Shown here: one piece after another, positions 1,934 to 11,629 of the stretch
How positions within the stretch are numbered: the stretch's first letter is position 1
Layout of the letters: each line of letters begins with the position of its first letter
From: Actinomycetota bacterium
GTDB lineage: Bacteria > Actinomycetota > UBA4738 > HRBIN12
DNA: 64,000 nt
Assembly: GCA_036374435.1 (NCBI GenBank)
Contig: DASUTU010000123.1
Span: 1,241 to 65,240 of the forward strand
Direction: 5' to 3'
The notes under the pieces: model-generated
What the model saw: the letters and a program-made list of their open reading frames with translations, nothing else
The model's database searches: none
Told to the model about the DNA's origin: nothing
Made by a program: the position numbers and the translations under genes

Positions 1934-3163
1934 TCAGGCTCCCCACACGTCGAGCTGCCGCCGGGTGAGCGCCGGAGTCCTTCCGAGCGGCCCGAACGCC
2001 CACGCCTTCAGCAGGGCCAGGCCGCCCCCGCCGAGCGCCAGCCCGGCACCGACCGCCGCCGACCCGCCGCCGATCCATCCGGCGCCGCCCAGCGCGAGCA
2101 GCGCCACCCCGACGTTGAACGTGACCACCTGCAGCGTCCCGCCGAGCTCGATCGCGGCGAGCTGGCGGCGGCGGTCGTCCGGATGACCGGGGTGGGCCAT
2201 CGGGAGCAGGTATTGCCACGCGCCGAGCAGCGTCTGGAGCACCCACCCGGCGACGAACACGGCCAGGAACACCTCGCGGTGCCGGGCGAACGACGCGGCG
2301 CCGCCGGCGAGGACCACCGGGAGGGTCAGCGATCCGGCCACGAACCAGGCCAGGGCGAACAAGAGGTGCTTCGCGGCGACGGGGACCGGCCAGCGGCGCG
2401 GCGTGCGGACGCTTCGAACCGCCATCCACGCCACGCCGAGAGCGCCGAGTGCGACCGCGATCCCCCCGGCGGCCGCGACCGGGGCCACGCCCACCCCGAG
2501 GCCGAACGCCGTCCCCGCGACGCCGGTCCCGAGCGCCACCCCGGTGGCGGTCCCGTGCCACGCGGGCATCCGGATGCGAAGGACGGTCGGGAGCAGCGTG
2601 ACGAGCGTCCCCACGATCGTGAACGACGCCCACCCCAAGACGTTCAGCGTGAGGTGGGCCTGGCGGACGGCCACCCAGCCCCGCCCCGGCATCGCTCGGG
2701 AGCCGAGCAGCGCCCCGAGCGTGCCGCCGGCGAGGACGGCGGCGACCGCGGCCAGATACATCGCGATCGGCAAGGGGTGCCGTCGGTTGAGGCCGATCCA
2801 CCGCGCTCGGACCACCAGCCAGCCGAGGACGGCGGCCGATGCCACGAACACGGTCCCGCCGGCGGCCACCAGGCCGGTGCGGCCGAGAGGGTGTCCCGCG
2901 GCCAGCAGCAGGACCCCGACGTTCAGCGCCCCGAACTGGGTTCCGACCAGCCACCCGGCGGGGGCGGGGGCCGCGGTCAAGGTGAGGGCGAAGTTCTGCA
3001 TCGCCCCGGCGATGGCCACCGAGACCGCGCCGGCCAACGCCAGGTGCAGCGGCAGCCACAACCCGAGGCGGTCGCTCTCGGGCAGCAGGAGCGACAGGGC
3101 GGCGGCGGTGAGCCAAAGGCGGGCGGCCGCCTGGTACCAACGGATCGTGGTCCGCGCGTTCAC
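1934..3163 (-). CDS. integral membrane protein, about 10-12 TM helices, unknown function
   Basis: This is the long hydrophobic frame within listed ORF 1934..3454. The GTG at 3163 ([27 protein letters not shown]) is the first plausible start. The upstream part of the listed ORF is antisense to the moaA-associated small gene. High GC3. Confidence 0.6.
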
Positions 3164-3220
3164 CCCCGAGAGCCTAGCTACCGGCGTGTAGCGTTCGGAC
3201 GTGCGACGAGGGAGGAACGT

Positions 3221-3457
3221 ATGGAGTGGATCGACGAGCTGGCCGAGGCGCTCGGCGAGGAGCCGCTCTCGGCCGAGCAGACGACGCGGCTGCTGAGCTC
3301 GGCACGGGCGGTGGCCCACCGCGTGGAGCGCCGCGTGACGCCCCTCGCGGCGTTCCTGCTCGGCGTCGCGGTGGGCCGCCGGACGGCCGCCGAGCGGGAC
3401 CTCGCTCTCGCGGAGGTCCTCGAAGCACTGGAGGCCCGCCTGCCCTCGGACCACTGA
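3221..3457 (+). CDS. small DUF6457-like protein, of the kind commonly found next to moaA in Actinobacteria
   Basis: ATG at 3221 preceded by GGAGGAACGT. It gives a 78-aa product MEWIDELAEALGEEPLSAEQTTRLLSSARAVAHRVERRVTPLAAFLLGVAVGRRTAAERDLALAEVLEALEARLPSDH, ending 27 nt before moaA. Confidence 0.55.
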   Translation: MEWIDELAEALGEEPLSAEQTTRLLSSARAVAHRVERRVTPLAAFLLGVAVGRRTAAERDLALAEVLEALEARLPSDH

Positions 3458-3483
3458 CGAGGATCGGGGTACGCTGGAGGTTC

Positions 3484-4512
3484 ATGTCCGAGACCTGGCT
3501 GCCGCCGTCCACCCCACCCCCGCCGTCCGGGCCGCTCGTCGACACGTTCGGGCGGGTCGCCGACGACCTGCGGATCTCGGTGACGGACCGCTGCAACTTC
3601 CGCTGCACGTATTGCATGCCGGCCGAGGGCCTGGCCTGGCTCCCGAAGTCGGAGATCCTCACGTTCGAGGAGCTCACGCGGCTGCTGCGGCTGTTCGTCC
3701 GGCTGGGGATCGGATCGGTCAAGGTCACCGGCGGCGAGCCCACGGTCCGGGCCGACCTCCCGGACCTGGTCCGGATGTTCCGCGAGGCGGCGCCCGGCAT
3801 CGACCTGTCGATGACGACCAACGGCGTGTTGCTCGACCGGCTCGCGGTTCCGCTTGCCGAGGCGGGCCTGGACCGCGTCACGATCTCGCTCGACTCGCTC
3901 CTGCGCCACCGGTTCCAGGAGATGACCCGCCGGGACGCCCTCGACCGCGTGCTCGCGGGCGTCCGGGCCGCCGAGGCGGCCGGCCTGGTGCCGATCAAGA
4001 TCAACTGCGTCGTGATCGGCGGTACGAACGACGAGGAGGTCGTGGACTTCGCCGCGTGGTCCCGGGAGCACGGTCACGTCGTCCGGTTCATCGAATACAT
4101 GCCGCTCGACGCCGACCACGCGTGGGAGCGAGCCAAGGTGGTGCCCTCGGCCCGGATCCTCGACGCCATCGACGCGGTGTATCCGCTGCGGCCCGCGGGG
4201 CCGGACCACGAACCGGCCACCAGCTACCGCTTCGCCGACGGTTCCCCCGGAGGGATCGGGGTGATCGGGAGCGTGACCGAGCCCTTCTGCGAGAGCTGCA
4301 ACCGGCTTCGGCTGACCGCCGAAGGCGAGGTGCGCTCGTGCCTGTTCGCGCTCGAGGAGACCGACCTGCGGGGTCCGATGCGTGAGGGCGCGAGCGACGC
4401 CGAGCTCGAGTCGTCGATCAGAACGACCGTCTGGCGCAAGTGGTCCGGCCATCGGATCAACCACCCGGACTTCGTGCAGCCCGAACGCAGCATGTCCGCG
4501 ATCGGCGGCTGA
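3484..4512 (+). CDS. moaA: GTP 3',8-cyclase MoaA (radical SAM)
   Basis: The ATG at 3484 follows GGAGG. It carries CNFRCTYCMP (CxxxCxxC radical SAM motif), a C-terminal auxiliary cluster CESCNRLRLTAEGEVRSCLF, and the GG tail typical of MoaA. Confidence 0.93.
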   Translation: MSETWLPPSTPPPPSGPLVDTFGRVADDLRISVTDRCNFRCTYCMPAEGLAWLPKSEILTFEELTRLLRLFVRLGIGSVKVTGGEPTVRADLPDLVRMFREAAPGIDLSMTTNGVLLDRLAVPLAEAGLDRVTISLDSLLRHRFQEMTRRDALDRVLAGVRAAEAAGLVPIKINCVVIGGTNDEEVVDFAAWSREHGHVVRFIEYMPLDADHAWERAKVVPSARILDAIDAVYPLRPAGPDHEPATSYRFADGSPGGIGVIGSVTEPFCESCNRLRLTAEGEVRSCLFALEETDLRGPMREGASDAELESSIRTTVWRKWSGHRINHPDFVQPERSMSAIGG

Positions 4513-4513
4513 G

Positions 4514-5236
4514 CTACGCTCCCGCGTCGACCGCCGCCAGCCGGGCGAGCCCCGCGATGTTCTTGAGCACGAACCGGCGTCCCTCCCGCTCAACGAACCC
4601 TCGCCGCTGGAAGTCCGAGAGGATCCGGGTGACGTTCTCGCGGCTTCCGCCGCAAAGGCTGGCGAGGTCGGCGTGGGTCACGACCGCGGGAACGACGGCC
4701 CCGTTCTCGGGAAGCTCGTCGAGCGAGGGAGCGACGAGCTGGAGCAAACGCTTCGCCACGCGCCCCTTGAGATCGAGGTAGAGCAGGTCCTCGACGAAGG
4801 CCTCCTGCGCTTGGACCTGGCGGGCCAGGGCCCGCAGCAACGCCAGCGCGGCGGCCGGCTCGTCGGTCAGGAACTCGAGGAACGTGGCGGCCGATACCCG
4901 CCACACCGTGGACTCCTCAAGAGCGATCCCGGCCCCGGTGCGCGGCATCCCGCCCAGGACTCCCAGCTCACCGAAGAACTGCGAGCGGTCCAGCGTCGTG
5001 TGGAGCTGCCGATGCCCGCCGACGGAGAGCGAGCTGATCTCGACGCGGCCGTCCACCAGGAAGAACACGTCCGGGGACTCTTCGCCCTGATGGAAGAGGT
5101 AGGTCCCTCGCCGATACGTCCGGATCGATCCGCGTTCCGCCAGGCGGGCCACGGTCTCCCGGGACGCGTCCTGCAAGAGTGGTGCGCCGGCCATCTCGTC
5201 GACGAGGGCGGCGGATCGGACGGTGGCTGCGCGCAC
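4514..5236 (-). CDS. Crp/Fnr family transcriptional regulator (cNMP-binding domain plus C-terminal HTH)
   Basis: N-terminal cNMP-binding domain (FFGELGVLGGMPRTGAGIALEESTVWRV). C-terminal HTH (THADLASLCGGSRENVTRILSDFQRRGFVE). Confidence 0.85.
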   Translation of the reverse strand: MRAATVRSAALVDEMAGAPLLQDASRETVARLAERGSIRTYRRGTYLFHQGEESPDVFFLVDGRVEISSLSVGGHRQLHTTLDRSQFFGELGVLGGMPRTGAGIALEESTVWRVSAATFLEFLTDEPAAALALLRALARQVQAQEAFVEDLLYLDLKGRVAKRLLQLVAPSLDELPENGAVVPAVVTHADLASLCGGSRENVTRILSDFQRRGFVEREGRRFVLKNIAGLARLAAVDAGA

Positions 5237-5286
5237 GAACCGAAAGCGTAGTCAACCGCTCGCCCGAGGCATAGCCCGCACATGAC

Positions 5287-5316
5287 GGCGGACCCGCCTC
5301 TCAGGGCGGGTCCGCC
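5287..5316. terminator. perfect 12-bp stem / 6-nt loop hairpin (GGCGGACCCGCC-tctcag-GGCGGGTCCGCC)
   Basis: Seen directly in the sequence. It lies downstream of the minus-strand small basic ORF and upstream of the crp-family gene. Confidence 0.5.
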
Positions 5317-5338
5317 GAGGGATTCGACCGAGGTTCGG

Positions 5339-5479
5339 CTATCTCGCCGCGCGCTTCGTGACGCGCTTGGAGACGCGCTTCAGCGACCGCTTCGTCACGC
5401 GGGTCGCCGCCGCCTTCTTCTCGCCGCCCTTCGTGCTCTTGGAGGGCGCCGCCTTCGGCGTGATCTTCTTCTCCGCCAC
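5339..5479 (-). CDS. small lysine/arginine-rich basic protein (histone-like tail composition), hypothetical
   Basis: GTG at 5479 with a GAGGGGGG Shine-Dalgarno 7 nt upstream. Product VAEKKITPKAAPSKSTKGGEKKAAATRVTKRSLKRVSKRVTKRAAR. The listed ORF 5339..5557 extends upstream without an RBS. Confidence 0.35.
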   Translation of the reverse strand: MAEKKITPKAAPSKSTKGGEKKAAATRVTKRSLKRVSKRVTKRAAR

Positions 5480-5583
5480 CTGCTCACCCCCCTCGCCACG
5501 TCCGGGCCCTTGGGCCACTCCTGCTGGTCGGCATCCTGCACCGCCCGGCACATCCAAGATGTGCCGGGCGTCACCACCTCCGG

Positions 5584-5623
5584 CGTGACGTGTGTCACAC
5601 GGGGGGATGTGACGCCCGTCACA
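5584..5623. promoter_or_regulatory. two adjacent CRP/FNR-type boxes: cGTGA-cgtgtg-TCACa (5584-5599) and TGTGA-cgcccg-TCACA (5608-5623)
   Basis: Direct match to the TGTGA-N6-TCACA consensus. Located about 105-145 nt upstream of the small basic ORF start and just downstream of the DUF2180 ORF. Confidence 0.55.
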
Positions 5624-5625
5624 CG

Positions 5626-5844
5626 TCAGGGGTCCGTCTCGACCTCGGGGAGATCGATCGGGTCCGGCCGGGGGGTGCAGGCACCGCAGTAGAGCGCGTC
5701 CTCCACGACGAGGGCTCGCGTCGTGTTCGCGCCTCGGAAGAGCTCCAGGATGAACGGCTGGGTCTCGACGTGGTCCTCACAGACGCCGCGGCCGCAGAAG
5801 CGACAGCTCCCCACGGCGGTTCGTCGGCAGTGCCAGCAGTCCAT
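5626..5844 (-). CDS. DUF2180-like zinc-ribbon protein (6 Cys in CxxC pairs)
   Basis: MDCWHCRRTAVGSCRFCGRGVCEDHVETQPFILELFRGANTTRALVVEDALYCGACTP. Same strand as the upstream S2P gene and 25 nt downstream of it. Confidence 0.6.
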   Translation of the reverse strand: MDCWHCRRTAVGSCRFCGRGVCEDHVETQPFILELFRGANTTRALVVEDALYCGACTPRPDPIDLPEVETDP

Positions 5845-5869
5845 CGCCCTCCTCCCGCCCGATCCCGGG

Positions 5870-8194
5870 CTAATGCTGCCAGGTTCGGTGGAGCGCTGCC
5901 GACGGGTTCAACGTGCCGCGGGTGAACGCCCCCGCGATGGCGCGATCGAAGCCATCGCGGCCCAGGCGGAACAGGCGGGCCGGCGTCCGGGCGATCACCG
6001 AGGCCGTCCTCGGCGCGTCGGTCAACAACGCCACCTCGCCGAAGTGAGCCCCAGCCCCCAGCGTGCCCACCCGCTCGCCGTCGCGGACGATCTCGACTTG
6101 GCCGGAGCCCAGGCCGTAGAACGCGTCCCCCTCCTCGCCCTGCCGGATGATCGTCTCGCCCGGACCGGCGTTGATCCAACGCCCCTGCGACACCACCGCG
6201 GCCAGGTCGTCGGCGCCGAGGGACGCGAAGGCCTCCACCACCCTCAGCTCGGCCGCCGCCTGGAGCGTGGGCGAGAACTGCGGGACCTCGATGGCCCGGG
6301 CCAGCAGCCGATCGAACGTGTTGGCGTCGACCACGAACAACTCGGCGTCTTCCACCGGGCGCACGGTCGCCGATCTCGGCGCCCGGTCGACGAGCCCGAG
6401 CTCCCCGAACGACTCTCCGCGCCCGAGCGTTCGCAAGACCCGGTCGCCCCCCGCCTCCGGATCCTCCTCCACCACCACGAACGTGCCGGACCGGACCACG
6501 TAGAAGGCCTCGGGCCGATCCCCCTGGCGGAACACCGGTTTGCCGGCCGGATACGCTCGTAGCCGAACGCGGCCCGCGAGGTCGGACAACAGGTCCTCCC
6601 CCAGGTCCTCGAACACCGGGAGCGCGTCGATCATCCGCGCGGCCTCCACTCGCCACCTGGTCTCGAGCCGGAAGGTGACGGCCCGAACCAGGGCCCTCGC
6701 CCGTCGCGCAAGCGATCGCAGCACGGCGATCCCCGCCCGAACGACCGGGCCCGTCACGAACAGGACCGCCGCCAGGAGCAGCAGGCGCGTCCCGATCCCG
6801 CCGTGCCACAACGTCCGGACCAGGCCGCCGAAGACGGCCTCCCAGAAGAACGCGGACCAGTACAACGAGAGCACGGTGAACGCGATGCCGAGCGCCGCGT
6901 AGAGCCCGATGCCGATCTCCTGCTTCGTGAACCGCTCTCGGCGACGGAGCTTGCGCCACAGGTCGTACCGGGCGAACCTCAGCGACCGGGGGCGCAGATC
7001 GGGGACCTGGATCGCGTCGGACAAGATGAAGTAGCCGTCGAGCTCGAGAAGCGGAACGAGGTTGAGGAAGATCACGAAGTAGTTGAGCAGCGCGAACTTG
7101 TACAGGAGCGAGGCCGGCGCGGAGTCCGGGAACGCCCACACGGCCAGCGACGCCGCTCCGGCCACGACCAGCTCGGAGTACGGACCGGCGAACGCCTGCG
7201 CGATCCGTTGACGCCGACCGAGCATCAATGCGTCGGAGGCCTCCACGAAGAACGCCGGCGACCCGAAGTAGATCATGAAGCCGGCGCTCTTCACGCGCCG
7301 GCCGTGGCGAACGAGCACCAGGGCGTGCGCGAGCTCGTGCACGAACGTGAGCACGTAGTTCATGGCGAGCAGGAGCAGCGTCGCCGTGACGGCGTCGCCG
7401 TCCGACAAGGAGAATCGCCCCTCTCGGTAGACCGCGACGAACGCGACGAAGCCGAGCACCGCCACGAATCCCACGGGGACCGACACCCACGGGAGAAAGA
7501 ACCACTTCAAACCGGAGCGATAGAACCAGTCGACGAGCCGGTGGGCGCCCCGCCAGTCGACCGAGAGGGTCTTCGCGAACTCTCGCGCCTTCCGTCGGGC
7601 CTTGGACACCGGATCGAGCGCTCGCCGGACCGCCGCGTCGACGTCGACGAACGGGGCGGCGAGGAACCCGCCTTCGTGGAGCTCCCGGACCAGATCGGCG
7701 ACGCCCGAGAGCTCGAGATCGCCGGAGGTCCGGAACCGCTCCATCACGATCTCCTTCACGGTCCTCGTCCCGTCCATCAGGCGAACCACCTCGACCTCTC
7801 CGGCTTCGAGGCGGTAGTGGAGCTGCTCCCGGGGGTTGGCGATCATCGCGTAGTCGTTGCCCCAACGGAGCGTGAACTCCTTCAGCTCCACGTCCGGGGC
7901 GAGCCGGGGTCGCAGGCGCGCCGGGTCCAGCCTCCGCTCGAGGGCCTCCCACACCCCCGCTGCCGGTTCGGCCTCGGATGGCGAGCCCATCCGCTCCTCG
8001 GAGAGCACGGGGCCGTGAACGGGCGCCGGCGGGCTCGACCGGTCGGCCTGGCTCGACGTCGGCGCCGTGTCCAGCCGCGTTCGGAGCAGCGAATAGACGG
8101 ACGTGCGGGGCGCCCGGCGGCGAGAGGCATACAGGTTACCGACGAAGGCTCCCACGAGAAGGACCAGCGTGGGGGTGCCGAGGGCGATCTCCAC
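5870..8194 (-). CDS. multidomain membrane protein: PqqD/RRE-like domain + site-2 protease (peptidase M50) core + two cNMP-binding domains
   Basis: The HELAHALV HExxH motif and the LELDGY motif sit within multiple TM helices. The segment EFTLRWGNDYAMIANPREQLHYRLEAGEVEVVRLMDGTRTVKEIVMERFRTSGDLELSGVADLVRELHEGGFL fits the PqqD/RRE pattern. The two C-terminal CAP-type domains carry FGELGLVD...RSATV and FGEVALLTD...RTASV. The GTG start at 8194 (GAGGA 7 nt upstream, high GC3, N-terminal TM helix) is preferred. An alternative ATG at 7993 also has GAGGAG. Confidence 0.8.
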   Translation of the reverse strand: MEIALGTPTLVLLVGAFVGNLYASRRRAPRTSVYSLLRTRLDTAPTSSQADRSSPPAPVHGPVLSEERMGSPSEAEPAAGVWEALERRLDPARLRPRLAPDVELKEFTLRWGNDYAMIANPREQLHYRLEAGEVEVVRLMDGTRTVKEIVMERFRTSGDLELSGVADLVRELHEGGFLAAPFVDVDAAVRRALDPVSKARRKAREFAKTLSVDWRGAHRLVDWFYRSGLKWFFLPWVSVPVGFVAVLGFVAFVAVYREGRFSLSDGDAVTATLLLLAMNYVLTFVHELAHALVLVRHGRRVKSAGFMIYFGSPAFFVEASDALMLGRRQRIAQAFAGPYSELVVAGAASLAVWAFPDSAPASLLYKFALLNYFVIFLNLVPLLELDGYFILSDAIQVPDLRPRSLRFARYDLWRKLRRRERFTKQEIGIGLYAALGIAFTVLSLYWSAFFWEAVFGGLVRTLWHGGIGTRLLLLAAVLFVTGPVVRAGIAVLRSLARRARALVRAVTFRLETRWRVEAARMIDALPVFEDLGEDLLSDLAGRVRLRAYPAGKPVFRQGDRPEAFYVVRSGTFVVVEEDPEAGGDRVLRTLGRGESFGELGLVDRAPRSATVRPVEDAELFVVDANTFDRLLARAIEVPQFSPTLQAAAELRVVEAFASLGADDLAAVVSQGRWINAGPGETIIRQGEEGDAFYGLGSGQVEIVRDGERVGTLGAGAHFGEVALLTDAPRTASVIARTPARLFRLGRDGFDRAIAGAFTRGTLNPSAALHRTWQH

Positions 8195-8339
8195 CCGCGC
8201 ATCCTCGGCCGGAACCCCCCATCCCGCAACGTGCTCGCCGTCACGTCCCGGTGGTGAGCGTCGTCACCTCGCGGCGTCGGCGCCCCCCAATACCGTCCCG
8301 GAAGAAGACGGCGCGGGATGTCGACGAGAGGAGGCCGAG

Positions 8340-8531
8340 GTGCTGAACGGAGACATCCAGATGCTGGCCGGGGAACTTTCGCACCATCGGGTGGCCGAAT
8401 TACGCCGCGAGGCGGACTCGGATCGGTTGGCCCGGGGGGCCCGCGGCTCCCGGGTAGCCAGAAGCCGAGGCACCGTCAAGCGGCTGGCTCAGGCGGCCCT
8501 GGCCGCGGCCACGTGGCCGATCCGCCGCTGA
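8340..8531 (+). CDS. small hypothetical protein (63 aa)
   Basis: GTG at 8340 preceded by GAGAGGAGG. Product VLNGDIQMLAGELSHHRVAELRREADSDRLARGARGSRVARSRGTVKRLAQAALAAATWPIRR. No homology recognised. Confidence 0.25.
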   Translation: MLNGDIQMLAGELSHHRVAELRREADSDRLARGARGSRVARSRGTVKRLAQAALAAATWPIRR

Positions 8532-8686
8532 GCACCGCCGGACGGTCGAATTCACGGGGCCGTCACATCGAGGTCGCGAGCGCGCCACGAGTGACGGCTA
8601 CGGTTCGGGTCGCCAAGAGGCATTCGCCCCTCTGGAGCGGGGGGTCGGACCGTCACCCGGCCCCCCGCGCCCCCCTCCGCGAAGCC

Positions 8687-9373
8687 TCAGGCCAGCGAGG
8701 CGATCAACTCGCGGAGGCCCTCCTCCCCGACCTCACCCTCCCCCGCGTAGACCACGACCCCGTCGGCGTCGACGAGGTAGAGGGTGGGGGTGCCGCGTAT
8801 CCCGAGAGCGGTGGCCGCCGTGCCGCCCTCGTCGTCGATGAGTGTCGGCGCCGTGATGTCGTTCTCGCGCAGGAACTCGCCGGCGTCGGGTCCGGGAGCC
8901 GCTCCGATCGAGGTCACGACCGTGACGAACCCGATGTCCGGGAAGTCCCCCAGGACCCGGCTCAGGACGGGGAGCTCGACCTGACAGTGGCTGCACCACG
9001 GGGCCCAGATCGACAGGGCCGTCGGGCGGCCGTCGAAGTCCGACCAGCTGACGGTTCCGCCCCCGATGGCGGGCCCGGAGAAGCCGGGCACGGTCTCGCC
9101 CACGGCCAGGGGTTCGCCCTGCCGCGAGGGCCCGTCGACGGTGACCTTACCCGCGGCCGAAGGGCCCACGGATGAGCCCTGGCCGCCGTCGTCTCCCTCC
9201 ATCAAGGCGAAGACGGCCAGCGCCACGAACGCGATCAGCGCCAGGCCGCCGATGACGTAGGCGACCGTGCGGCGTTGCGCCTGTCGTCTGCGGGCGGCCT
9301 CCCGGACCTCAGCCGCGGCCCGCCGGCGCTCCCGCTTGCTCTGCTTGTCGATCGGCTCCGTCGTCTTGCTCAT
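8687..9373 (-). CDS. TlpA/ResA-like thioredoxin-fold thiol-disulfide oxidoreductase, membrane anchored
   Basis: WAPWCSHCQ CxxC motif. N-terminal TM (VAYVIGGLALIAFVALAVFAL). ATG at 9373 after GGAGG. Confidence 0.8.
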   Translation of the reverse strand: MSKTTEPIDKQSKRERRRAAAEVREAARRRQAQRRTVAYVIGGLALIAFVALAVFALMEGDDGGQGSSVGPSAAGKVTVDGPSRQGEPLAVGETVPGFSGPAIGGGTVSWSDFDGRPTALSIWAPWCSHCQVELPVLSRVLGDFPDIGFVTVVTSIGAAPGPDAGEFLRENDITAPTLIDDEGGTAATALGIRGTPTLYLVDADGVVVYAGEGEVGEEGLRELIASLA

Positions 9374-9836
9374 GGTCGGCCTCCGTCGTGGCGAACAGGT
9401 TGTCGAGCTGCCACGGCCCACGCGGCCGAACCGCGAGGTAGACGCCGAACAGCACGATCGGGATGTCTCGGACGATGTCCCACCAACTCACGCCCTGGCC
9501 CGGGCCGCCGCCACCGAAGCAGCCGCAGTCGATCTCGAGGCCTCGTGCCTTGGCCTGCCCCATCGCCGCGATGAACATCACGCCGAGCGCCGCGGTCGTC
9601 ACGCCGGCGAACCGGACGAACAACCCGGCCACGAGCAGGAACGCCACGGCGATCTCGACCCAGGGCAGGACCGCGGCCACCAGGCGGACCCCGGCCTCCG
9701 GGAGCAGGTCGTAGGCGTCCACGGCCAGGATCGACTCCTGGCGGTCGAACGCCTTGGACAGACCCGCCCACAGCAGCAGGGCGGCCGGGCCGAGCCGACC
9801 GACCAACCTGAGCGCGAGCAGGGCCGTGCGAGACAT
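9309..9836 (-). CDS. MauE/DoxX-family membrane protein (methylamine utilisation MauE-like)
   Basis: Four predicted TM helices, a CGCFGGGG motif and DoxX-like topology. It overlaps the downstream TlpA-like gene by 65 nt, suggesting a coupled redox pair. Confidence 0.7.
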   Translation of the reverse strand: MSRTALLALRLVGRLGPAALLLWAGLSKAFDRQESILAVDAYDLLPEAGVRLVAAVLPWVEIAVAFLLVAGLFVRFAGVTTAALGVMFIAAMGQAKARGLEIDCGCFGGGGPGQGVSWWDIVRDIPIVLFGVYLAVRPRGPWQLDNLFATTEADHEQDDGADRQAEQAGAPAGRG

Positions 9837-9944
9837 GTCCCTTCATGCTCGGGACACGGATCGTCGGAGGGGAAGGCCCTTCGACCCGTTCCCGCTAGGA
9901 CGGGCGGACCGATTCAGCTGTGAGCGGGCGCCCGACCGGACCCG

Positions 9945-10811
9945 TCAGGGCCACCGGGCGACCATGACCCGAGTGACCTTGAATCCTCGATCCATCGTGC
10001 TCCGTACGTCGCGGAACCCGGCGGCGCGCAGGACCGAGGCCACCGCCCGCGAGCGGTCGGGGCTGACCTCGACGAGGAGCCAGCCTCCCGGCTCGAGCCA
10101 GGCGCCGGCCTCCTCCACGGTCCGCCCGATCAGGCCGAGGCCGTCCCAGCTCCGATCGGTCAAGGTGTGGGCCGGCTCCCACCGCCGGATCTCCTCGGGG
10201 AGGTCGCGGACCTCCTGCCGGGCCACGTACGGCGGGTGGAGCGTCACCACGTCCACCGTCCCGCGCAGCGACGACGGCAGGGCGTCGAAGAGGTCGCCGA
10301 CGAAGAACGTGGCCCGTTTCGCCAGGCCGAGACGAGCGGCGTTCTGGCGGGCCACCCGGACGGCCTGACGCGAGATGTCGGTCCCGACGGTGCGGGCGGT
10401 CCGGACCTCGTTTGCCACCGCCAGGGCCACCGTCCCACCGCCCGTGGCGACGTCCACGTGGACCGGCCGGCGACGGCGCCGGAGCCGCCGGACGGCCTGC
10501 TCGGCGAGGAACTCGGTCGAGTCGCGGGGAACGAACACGCCCGGACGGATCAGGATCTCGAGGCCGCGGAACGTCGCGTACCCCTTGATGAGCTGCGTGG
10601 GCTCGCCGAGGGCTCGCCGATCCACGTACCGGTCGAACCGGCGACGGGCCGCCGCCGGGATCTCCGCGTCCGGATCGAGCTCGTCCACGCCCAGCGCGTG
10701 GCACAGGAGGTCCTCCGCCTCGATCAGCTCGCGGTCGCGCTGCCAGTGGTCGATGGCCTCCGAGGCCTCGAGCACCCGGACCGCGCGATCGAGCGCCTCC
10801 GCCGTGTTCAC
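9945..10811 (-). CDS. PrmC/HemK-related protein N5-glutamine methyltransferase family protein
   Basis: GTG at 10811 (VNTAEALDRAVRVLEASE...). SAM-binding motif VDVATGGGTVALAVANE. Catalytic motif VVTLHPPYV, i.e. HPPY in place of the canonical NPPY. The upstream 150 codons of the listed ORF are shadow. Confidence 0.7.
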   Translation of the reverse strand: MNTAEALDRAVRVLEASEAIDHWQRDRELIEAEDLLCHALGVDELDPDAEIPAAARRRFDRYVDRRALGEPTQLIKGYATFRGLEILIRPGVFVPRDSTEFLAEQAVRRLRRRRRPVHVDVATGGGTVALAVANEVRTARTVGTDISRQAVRVARQNAARLGLAKRATFFVGDLFDALPSSLRGTVDVVTLHPPYVARQEVRDLPEEIRRWEPAHTLTDRSWDGLGLIGRTVEEAGAWLEPGGWLLVEVSPDRSRAVASVLRAAGFRDVRSTMDRGFKVTRVMVARWP

Positions 10812-10868
10812 GGGCGAGGACGGTACCAGCGGGGCGTGTGCTCGCCACCGCCGTGGGACAATCGGCGC

Positions 10869-11228
10869 ATGGCGAAGAGCGGCGCCGCCAAGGTGAAGAC
10901 GGCTCGACCCAAGGCCGACGACGTTCGCCTGACGGGCGACCGCATCGTGGTGCACCACCCCGAAGACGGGGAACGCAAGACTCGCGGTGGCCTGCTGATC
11001 CCCGCGACGGCGGCCCCGGCCCCGCGACGATGCATCTGGGGCGACGTCCTGCTGGTTGGCCCCGACGTCCGCAACGTCCGGCCGGGAGACCGGATCCTGT
11101 ACCTGCCCCAGGCCGGGCTCGAGCTCGAGCTGGACGGCCACGACTACCTGCTCCTGCGCGAGCGCGACGTCCAGGCCGTCCAGTCGCCGGCCGACGGCGC
11201 CGAAGGACAACCCGGCCAGTACCTCTAG
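10869..11228 (+). CDS. GroES (Cpn10)-like co-chaperonin family protein, orphan and divergent
   Basis: MAKSGAAKVKTARPKADDVRLTGDRIVVHHPEDGERKTRGGLLIPATAAPAPRRCIWGDVLLVGPDVRNVRPGDRILYLPQAGLELELDGHDYLLLRERDVQAVQ follows the GroES pattern (DRI.V...E..T.GGL.IP.TA....G.V.AVGP......GD.I.Y......E.E..G..YL.L...D.LAV). High GC3. Confidence 0.55.
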   Translation: MAKSGAAKVKTARPKADDVRLTGDRIVVHHPEDGERKTRGGLLIPATAAPAPRRCIWGDVLLVGPDVRNVRPGDRILYLPQAGLELELDGHDYLLLRERDVQAVQSPADGAEGQPGQYL

Positions 11229-11629
11229 CCGCCGACGAACGTCAGCCGCAGGTGGCGCACGTCGTTGTCGCGGTTCGGGTCGATCAACACGACCCGCTGC
11301 CACGTCCCGAGCGCGAGCCGGCCGCCGTCCACGGGCAGGACCAGTGAAGGCGAGACGAACACCGGGAGGAGGTGGTCGCCGCCGTGCCCGGGCGAGCCGT
11401 GTCGGTGCCGGTACCGATCGTCCCGCGGGAGGAACCGCTCGAGGGCTTCGTCCAGATCCTCCTCGGAGCCCGACCCGGTCTCCATCAGCGCCAGGCCCGC
11501 CGTGGCGTGCGGGGCGAAAACGTGGACGAGCCCGTCCCGCCCGGCCGAGGACGCGAAGGCGAGGACGCGGTCCGTCACGTCAACGACGCGTCGCCCTCGG
11601 GTCTCGAGGCGGATCTCCTCGACGTCCAC
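11225..11629 (-). CDS. YjbQ/UPF0047 family protein (secondary thiamine-phosphate synthase-like)
   Basis: ETRGRRVVDVTDRVLAF...HATAGLALMETGSGSEEDLDEALERFLP...HLLPVFVSPSLVLPVDGGRLALGTWQRVVLIDPN is typical of YjbQ. Confidence 0.75.
   Translation of the reverse strand: MDVEEIRLETRGRRVVDVTDRVLAFASSAGRDGLVHVFAPHATAGLALMETGSGSEEDLDEALERFLPRDDRYRHRHGSPGHGGDHLLPVFVSPSLVLPVDGGRLALGTWQRVVLIDPNRDNDVRHLRLTFVGG

Follow-up and report, generated by a model that had tools for sequence, protein, structure and literature searches.

The closest described relatives of the system treated here are enzymes that mature peptides which are ribosomally synthesized and undergo post-translational modification (RiPPs). In the published daptide leader peptidase MpaP/DapP, termed an "RRE-dependent intramembrane peptidase," a RiPP recognition element (RRE) lies N-terminal to an intramembrane site-2 protease (S2P), and the daptide leader motif ELExMEAP is read by RREs. 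The daptide gene clusters had been found through RRE domains. Epipeptides (EpeP) and pearlins (TglG/TmoG, with peptide C termini as the site of action) are matured by M50 enzymes as well, and the leader of TMcin is removed by TmcP, a DUF3267 enzyme of the S2P clan. Here we analyze a two-gene locus in a 64,000-nucleotide stretch of an Actinomycetota genome assembly (contig DASUTU010000123.1, positions 1,241 to 65,240; "the window"), which encodes an RRE-S2P protein fused to a tandem cyclic nucleotide (cNMP) sensor and, directly downstream, a small zinc finger protein. An earlier inspection made without database searches (the sequence-only reading) had held that this combination is not a described system. 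That was too strong, as the pairing of RRE and S2P is already known from MpaP/DapP, and M50 proteases are known in several RiPP classes; what seems to lack a description is limited to the finger partner and the fusion to a cNMP sensor. In the literature searched, which covered few subscription journals, we found no described S2P with cNMP-binding domains, no study of DUF2180, and no account of the finger partner.

We propose, with a probability of about 0.55, that the locus is a two-gene module consisting of an RRE-guided site-2-type zinc metalloprotease with a cNMP sensor like that of the protein kinase A (PKA) regulatory subunit and an obligate two-zinc finger protein. The features on which this rests are as follows (M50, peptidase family; TM, transmembrane; aa, amino acids).

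5870..8194, minus strand: gene for the membrane protein with RRE, M50/S2P core, and two cNMP-binding domains, 774 aa when read from the GTG at 8194
7661..7906, minus strand: RRE (PqqD-like winged-helix) domain, aa 97-178, predicted to be cytoplasmic
6725..7510, minus strand: six-TM M50/S2P core, aa 229-490, from Pfam PF02163, invariant catalytic residues, and TM/loop analysis
7325-7339, minus strand: HELAH motif, aa 286-290
7034-7063, minus strand: NLVPLLELDG motif, aa 378-387
5921..6598, minus strand: tandem cNMP-binding domains, aa 533-758, from Pfam PF00027 and Foldseek
5626..5844, minus strand: gene for the putative 72-aa two-zinc cross-brace finger partner, from its ligand pattern and conservation in homologues

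In this region of ~72% G+C, minus-strand genes were picked by GC content at third codon positions (GC3), which is of the coding type in both the protease open reading frame (ORF; 0.91) and the finger ORF (0.88). Both ORFs had been called by the sequence-only reading, with the finger ORF co-directional and 25 nt past the protease stop codon, and its three-part architecture for the first of them is real. The finger gene is preceded by GGGAGGAGG. The protease core exceeds the gathering score of Peptidase_M50 (PF02163; 33.6 versus 27.2 bits) and carries HExxH in one TM helix and NxxPxxxxDG in a later one, the criterion for M50 peptidases. Residues H286, E287, H290, N378, P381, D386, and G387 are invariant in 55 aligned homologues, and the proposed M50 core with HELAH and LDG stands on these two results. 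The two predicted CAP-like domains were likewise recovered, as two stretches that match cNMP_binding above its gathering score (PF00027; E = 1.2e-43, 147 bits). Each stretch retains an intact phosphate-binding cassette (FGELGL..RSAT and FGEVALL..RTAS), and G597, E598, R607, G719, E720, and R729 are invariant in the 55 homologues. Foldseek matches the C-terminal half to the tandem CNB-A/B domains of the PKA regulatory subunit (3of1, 5e-19). Ligand binding is predicted, and the RSAT and RTAS motifs alone cannot assign the sensor to cAMP or cGMP.

The full-length AlphaFold2 (AF2) model contains six long TM helices and two beta-barrel sensor domains, and a continuous helix (466-523) joins TM6 to the sensor tandem. 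The numbers of K plus R residues are 7, 7, 7, and 6 for the RRE segment, the TM2-3 loop, the TM4-5 loop, and the C-terminal sensors, respectively, compared with 2, 0, and 2 for the remaining loops; TM2 and TM4 carry HELAH and LDG, respectively, at their cytoplasmic ends. Because of these loop counts and motif positions, the positive-inside rule predicts that the RRE docking domain, the active-site mouth, and the sensor are all cytoplasmic. The protein ends in RTWQH (aa 770-774, 5870-5884), with R770 and H774 invariant and REWEH or RTWEH in relatives. We rejected this tail as a general autoinhibitory element, because its conservation is confined to the ~700-aa actinobacterial subgroup and the other architectures lack it. 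An identical 774-aa protein has been deposited from an Actinomycetota metagenome-assembled genome, labeled only "cyclic nucleotide-binding domain-containing protein." Most homologues begin around aa 50 to 80, which leaves both the start codon and an additional TM anchor at the N terminus uncertain; aa 1-68 (7990-8194) include a hydrophobic helix at aa 2-24 and, after it, RRR, and only the closest relatives have this extension.

Sequence profiles gave nothing usable for the N-terminal domain. The PqqD hidden Markov model (PF05402) has no match at E<=1 in the window protease and weak matches (E about 0.02) in 2 of 24 homologues, and a profile of the domain searched against PDB sequences returned noise only; RREs are described as sequence-divergent in the daptide paper. 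We therefore turned to fold comparison. In the full-length model (pLDDT 76), aa 97-178 form a beta-beta-beta-alpha-alpha-alpha unit with strands at 103-107, 115-120, and 125-129 and helices at 131-138, 146-157, and 162-174. When aa 80-215 were modeled alone by AF2 (pLDDT 72) and compared by Foldseek, the top four PDB hits were the leader-bound lasso-peptide B1 RREs TbiB1 and TfuB1 (TM score 0.71). Based on this match, we identify the domain as an RRE by predicted fold, with peptide binding itself a prediction. The winged helix for which structure prediction had been suggested was thus found as a three-stranded sheet and three helices, and of the earlier claim of a PqqD/RRE-like fold the fold has held, whereas the PqqD profile stayed silent.

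Among named families, the daptide peptidases are the closest relatives of the window protease by profile. The NCBIfam model daptide_HExxH (NF041824) aligns over aa 97-460, that is, the RRE and M50 core (4e-48; profile positions 2-347 of 379), consistent with a shared arrangement of N-terminal RRE and M50/S2P. However, the score of 164.4 bits against a curated cut-off of 300 places the window protease outside that family. None of the daptide genes DapB/C/D/M and no Thr-terminated precursor was found near it, and the close loci are likewise without a daptide biosynthetic gene cluster, the marks of which would be DapA precursors, a DUF-RRE DapB, and ADH, aminotransferase, and methyltransferase genes. 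The window protease also adds ~270 aa of tandem cNMP sensor and an obligate finger partner. A weak match to the YydH/LiaK model NF058609 (42 bits versus a cut-off of 225, 8e-11) was also obtained. TglG/TmoG, EpeP/YydH, and TmcP are, like the window protease, membrane enzymes of the M50/S2P clan, and theirs is an action on ribosomal peptides, but no report describes cNMP-binding domains or a finger partner for any of them.

For the sensor, structurally similar cNMP domains, in tandem or single, occur in the PKA regulatory subunit and in mycobacterial Pat (Rv0998; the Pat model NF058543 covers the sensor domains). There they exert allosteric control over a catalytic unit that is attached or bound, whereas in the window protein the output domain is an intramembrane metalloprotease, for which we found no described precedent. 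The TIGR03896 (cyc_nuc_ocin) proteins, with two cNMP domains, are linked by gene context to NHLP/Nif11 bacteriocin transport operons, but they are stand-alone and soluble, and the matches to that model (1e-7 for the window protease and 5e-15 for the homologue P0274) are weak and far below its cut-off of 161.

The partner protein has eight potential zinc ligands, C3, C6, C14, C17, C22, H25, C53, and C56, in the pattern C-x2-C-x7-C-x2-C-x4-C-x2-H...C-x2-C. We read this as a two-zinc cross-brace finger, the zinc content being predicted. The sequence-only reading had counted six Cys and assigned a DUF2180-type ribbon; the actual count is seven Cys plus the conserved His25, and the match to DUF2180 (PF09947) is marginal, at 20.3 bits against a gathering score of 22.2 (6e-4) and over N-terminal residues 1-29 only of a 68-position profile. 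One finger homologue scores 22.4 bits on this profile, and a precomputed DUF2180 label is attached to 6 of 120 relatives. Weak matches were also found to C5HCH (4e-4) and to the NSD3 C5HCH structure (PDB 4gnd, E = 0.011). The first six ligands (C-x2-C-x7-C-x2-C-x4-C-x2-H) are indeed like those of NSD-type C5HCH fingers, AN1-like fingers, and DUF2180, but the window finger scores below the family cut-offs and has a 27-aa insert before the last CxxC and an acidic tail without counterpart there. This conserved, Pro-rich tail reads P-R-P-D-P-x-D-L-P-E-L-D, and the consensus of the homologues ends in CGxCxP(R/K)x(D/E)PxxLPELD at, or within 3 residues of, the C terminus. Approximately 500 database clusters are 71 to 87% identical to the finger, all of ~70 aa. 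In one distant homologue (locus L167, 3449-3664), the second zinc ligand is Asp rather than Cys (CWID versus CWHC).

The pairing of the two genes is strongly conserved. The finger gene lies directly 3' of the protease gene in all 80 genome loci (protease identity, 52 to 74%), after a gap of 1 to 46 nt with a Shine-Dalgarno sequence, and, reciprocally, the 3' end of a protease gene lies <=80 nt upstream of the finger gene in 77/77 metagenome loci, these being the loci with enough upstream sequence. The metagenome scan with a finger profile yielded close relatives only and added no diversity. This adjacency might be inherited synteny of a single clade, of no functional meaning, given that the 80 + 80 loci are mostly from one soil Actinomycetota lineage in which synteny extends over MoaA, methyltransferase, and UPF0047. 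Distant relatives argue otherwise. They were sampled from an exhaustive search of representatives (810 at E<1e-30) and include proteins of ~700 to 755 aa at 31 to 45% identity, a class of ~1030 to 1170 aa with extra TM helices, and forms that carry an FHA domain at the N terminus or a redoxin domain at the C terminus. The finger and protease genes are immediate neighbors in seven of the eight informative distant loci (L081, L082, L083, L084, L085, L086, and L167; L169 was left out of this count, as the locus ends at a contig end), where the proteases are 31 to 36% identical to the window copy, the flanks are unrelated, and G+C content is 53 to 68%. The order is swapped in L082, with the finger gene upstream, and the two genes overlap by 4 nt in L085. 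Two further loci, reached from divergent finger proteins (L170 and L171), both have the protease immediately upstream, and the adjacency spans protease architectures of 740, 876, 908, and 1105 to 1151 aa. Because distant loci keep the pair with unrelated flanks, the synteny explanation is very improbable and close to refuted, and functional coupling of the two genes is well supported. The co-conservation of the finger neighbor that the sequence-only reading had predicted was thus borne out. The family is large (>1400 close relatives) and abundant in soil metagenomes, with generic annotation only.

Based on these features, we propose that the cytoplasmic RRE of the module binds a short linear motif of a peptide and hands it to the M50 active site, which faces the cytoplasm, and that occupancy of the sensor by cAMP or cGMP, acting through the continuous TM6 helix, would open or close the TM5/6 gate. 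Such gating is suggested because the sensor hangs on the TM6 helix and TM5/6 is the proposed substrate gate of S2Ps.

S2Ps usually come under the control of a prior site-1 cut, of gating by PDZ domains, or of ATP acting via CBS domains. The nearest analogy for the window protein would be SpoIVFB, studied in the Kroos laboratory, whose C-terminal CBS domain reportedly makes intramembrane cleavage ATP dependent. The logic may be shared, in that a cytoplasmic nucleotide sensor placed after the last TM helix would make cleavage conditional on a small molecule. The window sensor differs in being a cNMP-binding beta-barrel rather than CBS, with a second messenger rather than ATP as ligand class; SpoIVFB is also said to lack an RRE and to have BofA and SpoIVFA as partners, in place of the zinc finger found here.

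Within this module, the finger would be the conserved partner (an adaptor, regulator, or docked effector), and the element likeliest to dock on the RRE or at the active site is the conserved tail at its C terminus. The sequence-only reading had instead favored the finger as the obvious substrate: its tail would dock on the RRE, cNMP would license the cut, and the finger would be released or destroyed as an effector, a logic that resembles sigma/anti-sigma regulated intramembrane proteolysis with a soluble client. This is possible but, in our view, doubtful. Near-universal co-occurrence and operon structure are compatible with it, as are the cytoplasmic placement of all relevant parts, the action of RiPP M50 enzymes such as TglG on peptide C termini, and the composition of the tail (...PRPDPxDLPELD), which is like that of the daptide leader motif ELExMEAP (a resemblance only). 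However, conservation of the finger spans its full length and exceeds that of the protease, which would be unusual for a mere substrate: identities are 70 to 87% versus 52 to 74% within the clade and 42 to 63% versus 31 to 36% across distant loci. A folded two-zinc domain would also be a poor client of an intramembrane protease except at its tail, and in many lineages better candidates, the Os17 precursors described below, lie in the same cluster. Because the finger is near-universal and evolves more slowly, while Os17 precursors come and go between lineages, we consider it more likely to be a conserved partner or subunit than the sole substrate. Cleaved substrates of the module probably differ by lineage. 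Elsewhere they are likely to be Os17 precursors of the NHLP clan, and in the window lineage the candidates are the finger itself and a neighboring K-rich peptide.

Loci outside the window clade provide the context for these predictions. Small precursor-like genes of the Os17/NHLP clan, one to three per locus, occur in 6 of 11 distant loci (L081, L082, L083, L084, L170, and L171) and match Pfam Frankia_peptide and the NCBIfam model NF038399 ("Os1348 family NHLP clan protein") above cut-off. Each has an NHLP-like leader of ~60 aa, the motif (D/E)xR(I/L/V)(S/T)K, which looks like a leader/core junction, and a core of 6 to 12 residues; examples of cores are GGIRFMP, MGIWLIP, and WCGINVIIAEV. The other genes differ among the distant loci: radical-SAM enzymes, a PqqD that stands alone, and a halogenase-like flavoenzyme in L084, an enzyme of the DUF692 MbnB/TglH/ChrH type adjoining the protease-finger pair in L083 (a likeness to the pearlin setting of TglG), and M16 peptidases in L167 and L170. 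The gene directly after the finger gene in L084 and L171 encodes a fusion of a class III nucleotide cyclase with a STAND ATPase. In L170, a Crp-family regulator, an Os17 precursor (72 aa), an M16 peptidase, an 1105-aa protease of the M50-2xCNB type, the finger, and ABC transporter genes are co-directional (2106-8213). From these precursor, enzyme, cyclase, and Crp neighbors, we infer that the protease-finger module recurs in RiPP-like, cNMP-linked settings outside the window clade. A literature search combining NHLP and cyclic nucleotides found nothing relevant.

Several of these loci deserve separate mention. Two hold compact RiPP-like clusters (L084, 270-13002, and L171, 11-9200) with two radical-SAM enzymes, PqqD, the halogenase-like flavoenzyme, and Os17/NHLP-clan precursors; the same clusters hold an FHA-RRE-M50-2xCNB protein, the finger, and a class III cyclase with a double zinc ribbon and a STAND/TPR fusion. 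L170 ties Crp to the protease-finger module in an unrelated lineage. No class III cyclase was found in the window; a few close relatives (L044, L051, L054, and L058) have a homologue no more than 10 kb away, directly after Crp in L044 and L051.

The same comparisons bear on a simpler explanation, in which the protease is a standard leader peptidase of a RiPP pathway, or an accessory to an exporter, with its precursor and tailoring genes at another site in the genome; its cNMP domains and finger would then be peripheral regulators without a signaling function of their own. Homology to the daptide and epipeptide M50 peptidases, the RiPP-like clusters around distant relatives, and the tie that TIGR03896 makes between a protein with two cNMP-binding domains and bacteriocin transport would all fit. 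Nevertheless, we consider it unlikely: none of the ~150 close loci has a precursor-like gene in its flanks, the stable neighbors there are Crp, the K-rich ORF, and housekeeping genes (MoaA and methyltransferase), and the daptide score is 164 bits against a 300-bit cut-off.

In L085 and L167, genes for an ECF sigma factor and a ZAS-type multi-TM anti-sigma factor come directly after the protease-finger pair (in L167, in the order protease-finger pair, M16 peptidase, ECF sigma/ZAS anti-sigma). These neighbors and the intact six-TM core suggest a classical S2P that cuts a membrane-spanning anti-sigma factor or other membrane protein after a site-1 cut, with the RRE-like domain a generic substrate binder. 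We regard this as quite improbable, because neither the window nor the close loci have a sigma/anti-sigma pair adjacent to the module, the Pfam scan matched no PDZ (or CBS) domain in the window protease, and the closest named relatives process soluble peptides. Classical S2Ps of the RseP/Rip1 type have PDZ domains and/or adjacent sigma/anti-sigma genes; the window module has neither.

Returning to the RRE-guided module, several observations weigh against it. Neither in the window nor in the 80 close loci can a RiPP precursor or a tailoring enzyme be recognized within ~10 kb, and tblastn detected no Os17/Frankia_peptide precursor in either. The silence of the PqqD profile counts on the same side, as does the moderate confidence of the AF2 models (pLDDT 72 to 76). 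The counts from the 80 + 80 close loci overstate the number of independent observations, and one of the eight informative distant loci, L168, has no finger gene nearby.

A more specific proposal is that the module is a second-messenger-gated intramembrane protease, in which cNMP binding moves the TM5/6 gate and an RRE-docked client is cut, so that a program is switched or a peptide released; either the finger protein or a small peptide specific to the lineage would serve as client. We advance this only tentatively. If true, it would be the first intramembrane protease gated by a second messenger, one widespread in soil Actinomycetota and extending to Chloroflexota and other phyla, and it would link cyclic nucleotide signaling directly to intramembrane proteolysis. 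In RiPP biology it would be the first case of cAMP/cGMP-gated leader removal or maturation, and the two-zinc finger would be a new, almost invariant accessory protein. Characterizing one member would annotate thousands of genes, and the protease-finger pair could serve as a new marker in mining for NHLP-clan (Os17) peptide clusters.

Downstream and upstream of the pair, the window contains further features.

4514..5236, minus strand: Crp/Fnr-family regulator (cNMP_binding and HTH_Crp_2), co-directional with and downstream of the finger gene
5339..5479, minus strand: K-rich basic ORF of ~46 aa, between the CRP boxes and Crp, in 71/71 loci
5560..5623, no strand assigned: three CRP-type boxes in the regulatory region of the K-rich ORF/Crp unit
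8253..8268, no strand assigned: weak CRP-like box GGTGAGCGTCGTCACC, ~60 nt upstream of the protease GTG
8361-8531, plus strand: small divergent ORF (MLAGELSHHRVAELRREADSDRLARGA...) upstream of the protease
8687-9421, minus strand: TlpA-like redoxin gene
9309-9836, minus strand: MauE gene
9945-11303, minus strand: PrmC-like methyltransferase gene

The Crp-family gene and CRP boxes noticed by the sequence-only reading are both real. The boxes have the core GTGAC-N6-GTCAC in exact 24-bp phasing, one being the perfect palindrome TGTGACGCCCGTCACA, and lie between the finger stop codon and the K-rich ORF that precedes Crp. Two to four boxes at 23- to 24-bp spacing occur in 69 of 71 related loci. Crp itself is kept downstream in most loci, and where it is displaced by ~1.4 kb the boxes move along with it; we therefore assign them, as predicted control elements, to the K-rich ORF/Crp unit. 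As regulators of the protease they are out as the principal interpretation, for the array follows Crp, and a box comparable to the weak one upstream of the protease exists in only ~10 of 71 loci. Of the second cNMP-responsive layer that had been proposed, the nearby Crp thus remains, but the boxes serve its own unit rather than the protease. In the window lineage, the module is probably co-regulated with the adjacent Crp, which would place a transcriptional cNMP layer atop the post-translational one.

The K-rich ORF, present in all 71 loci that hold both finger and Crp, has no Pfam match. It consists of a conserved head (VAEKKITPKA...AATRVTK) and a hypervariable basic tail, often of tandem repeats (KRQTKRQT, KVQKVQ, and RVKRVK), an arrangement like that of a precursor peptide or of a small protein that binds the nucleoid or the ribosome. 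As a general partner of the protease it was rejected, as it is absent from distant loci except L085; it stays a candidate clade-specific substrate.

The other gene neighbors in the window are the redoxin, MauE, the PrmC-like methyltransferase, and MoaA, and an Rfam scan of positions 4000 to 10000 matched no RNA family. The TlpA-like redoxin and MauE genes (together 8687-9836, minus strand) lie upstream of the protease, and the redoxin gene is found in 20 of 80 loci. In some Dehalococcoidia relatives (P0318 and P0338/P0422), an AhpC-TSA/redoxin domain is fused to the C terminus of the RRE-M50-2xCNB protein, a possible Rosetta-stone link to the neighboring redoxin; the fused domain seems to be without CxxC. 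The small divergent ORF (8361-8531) is conserved by tblastn in at least 26 of 80 genome loci and in 8 metagenome loci, and a similar 69-aa ORF occupies the same position in the distant locus L167.

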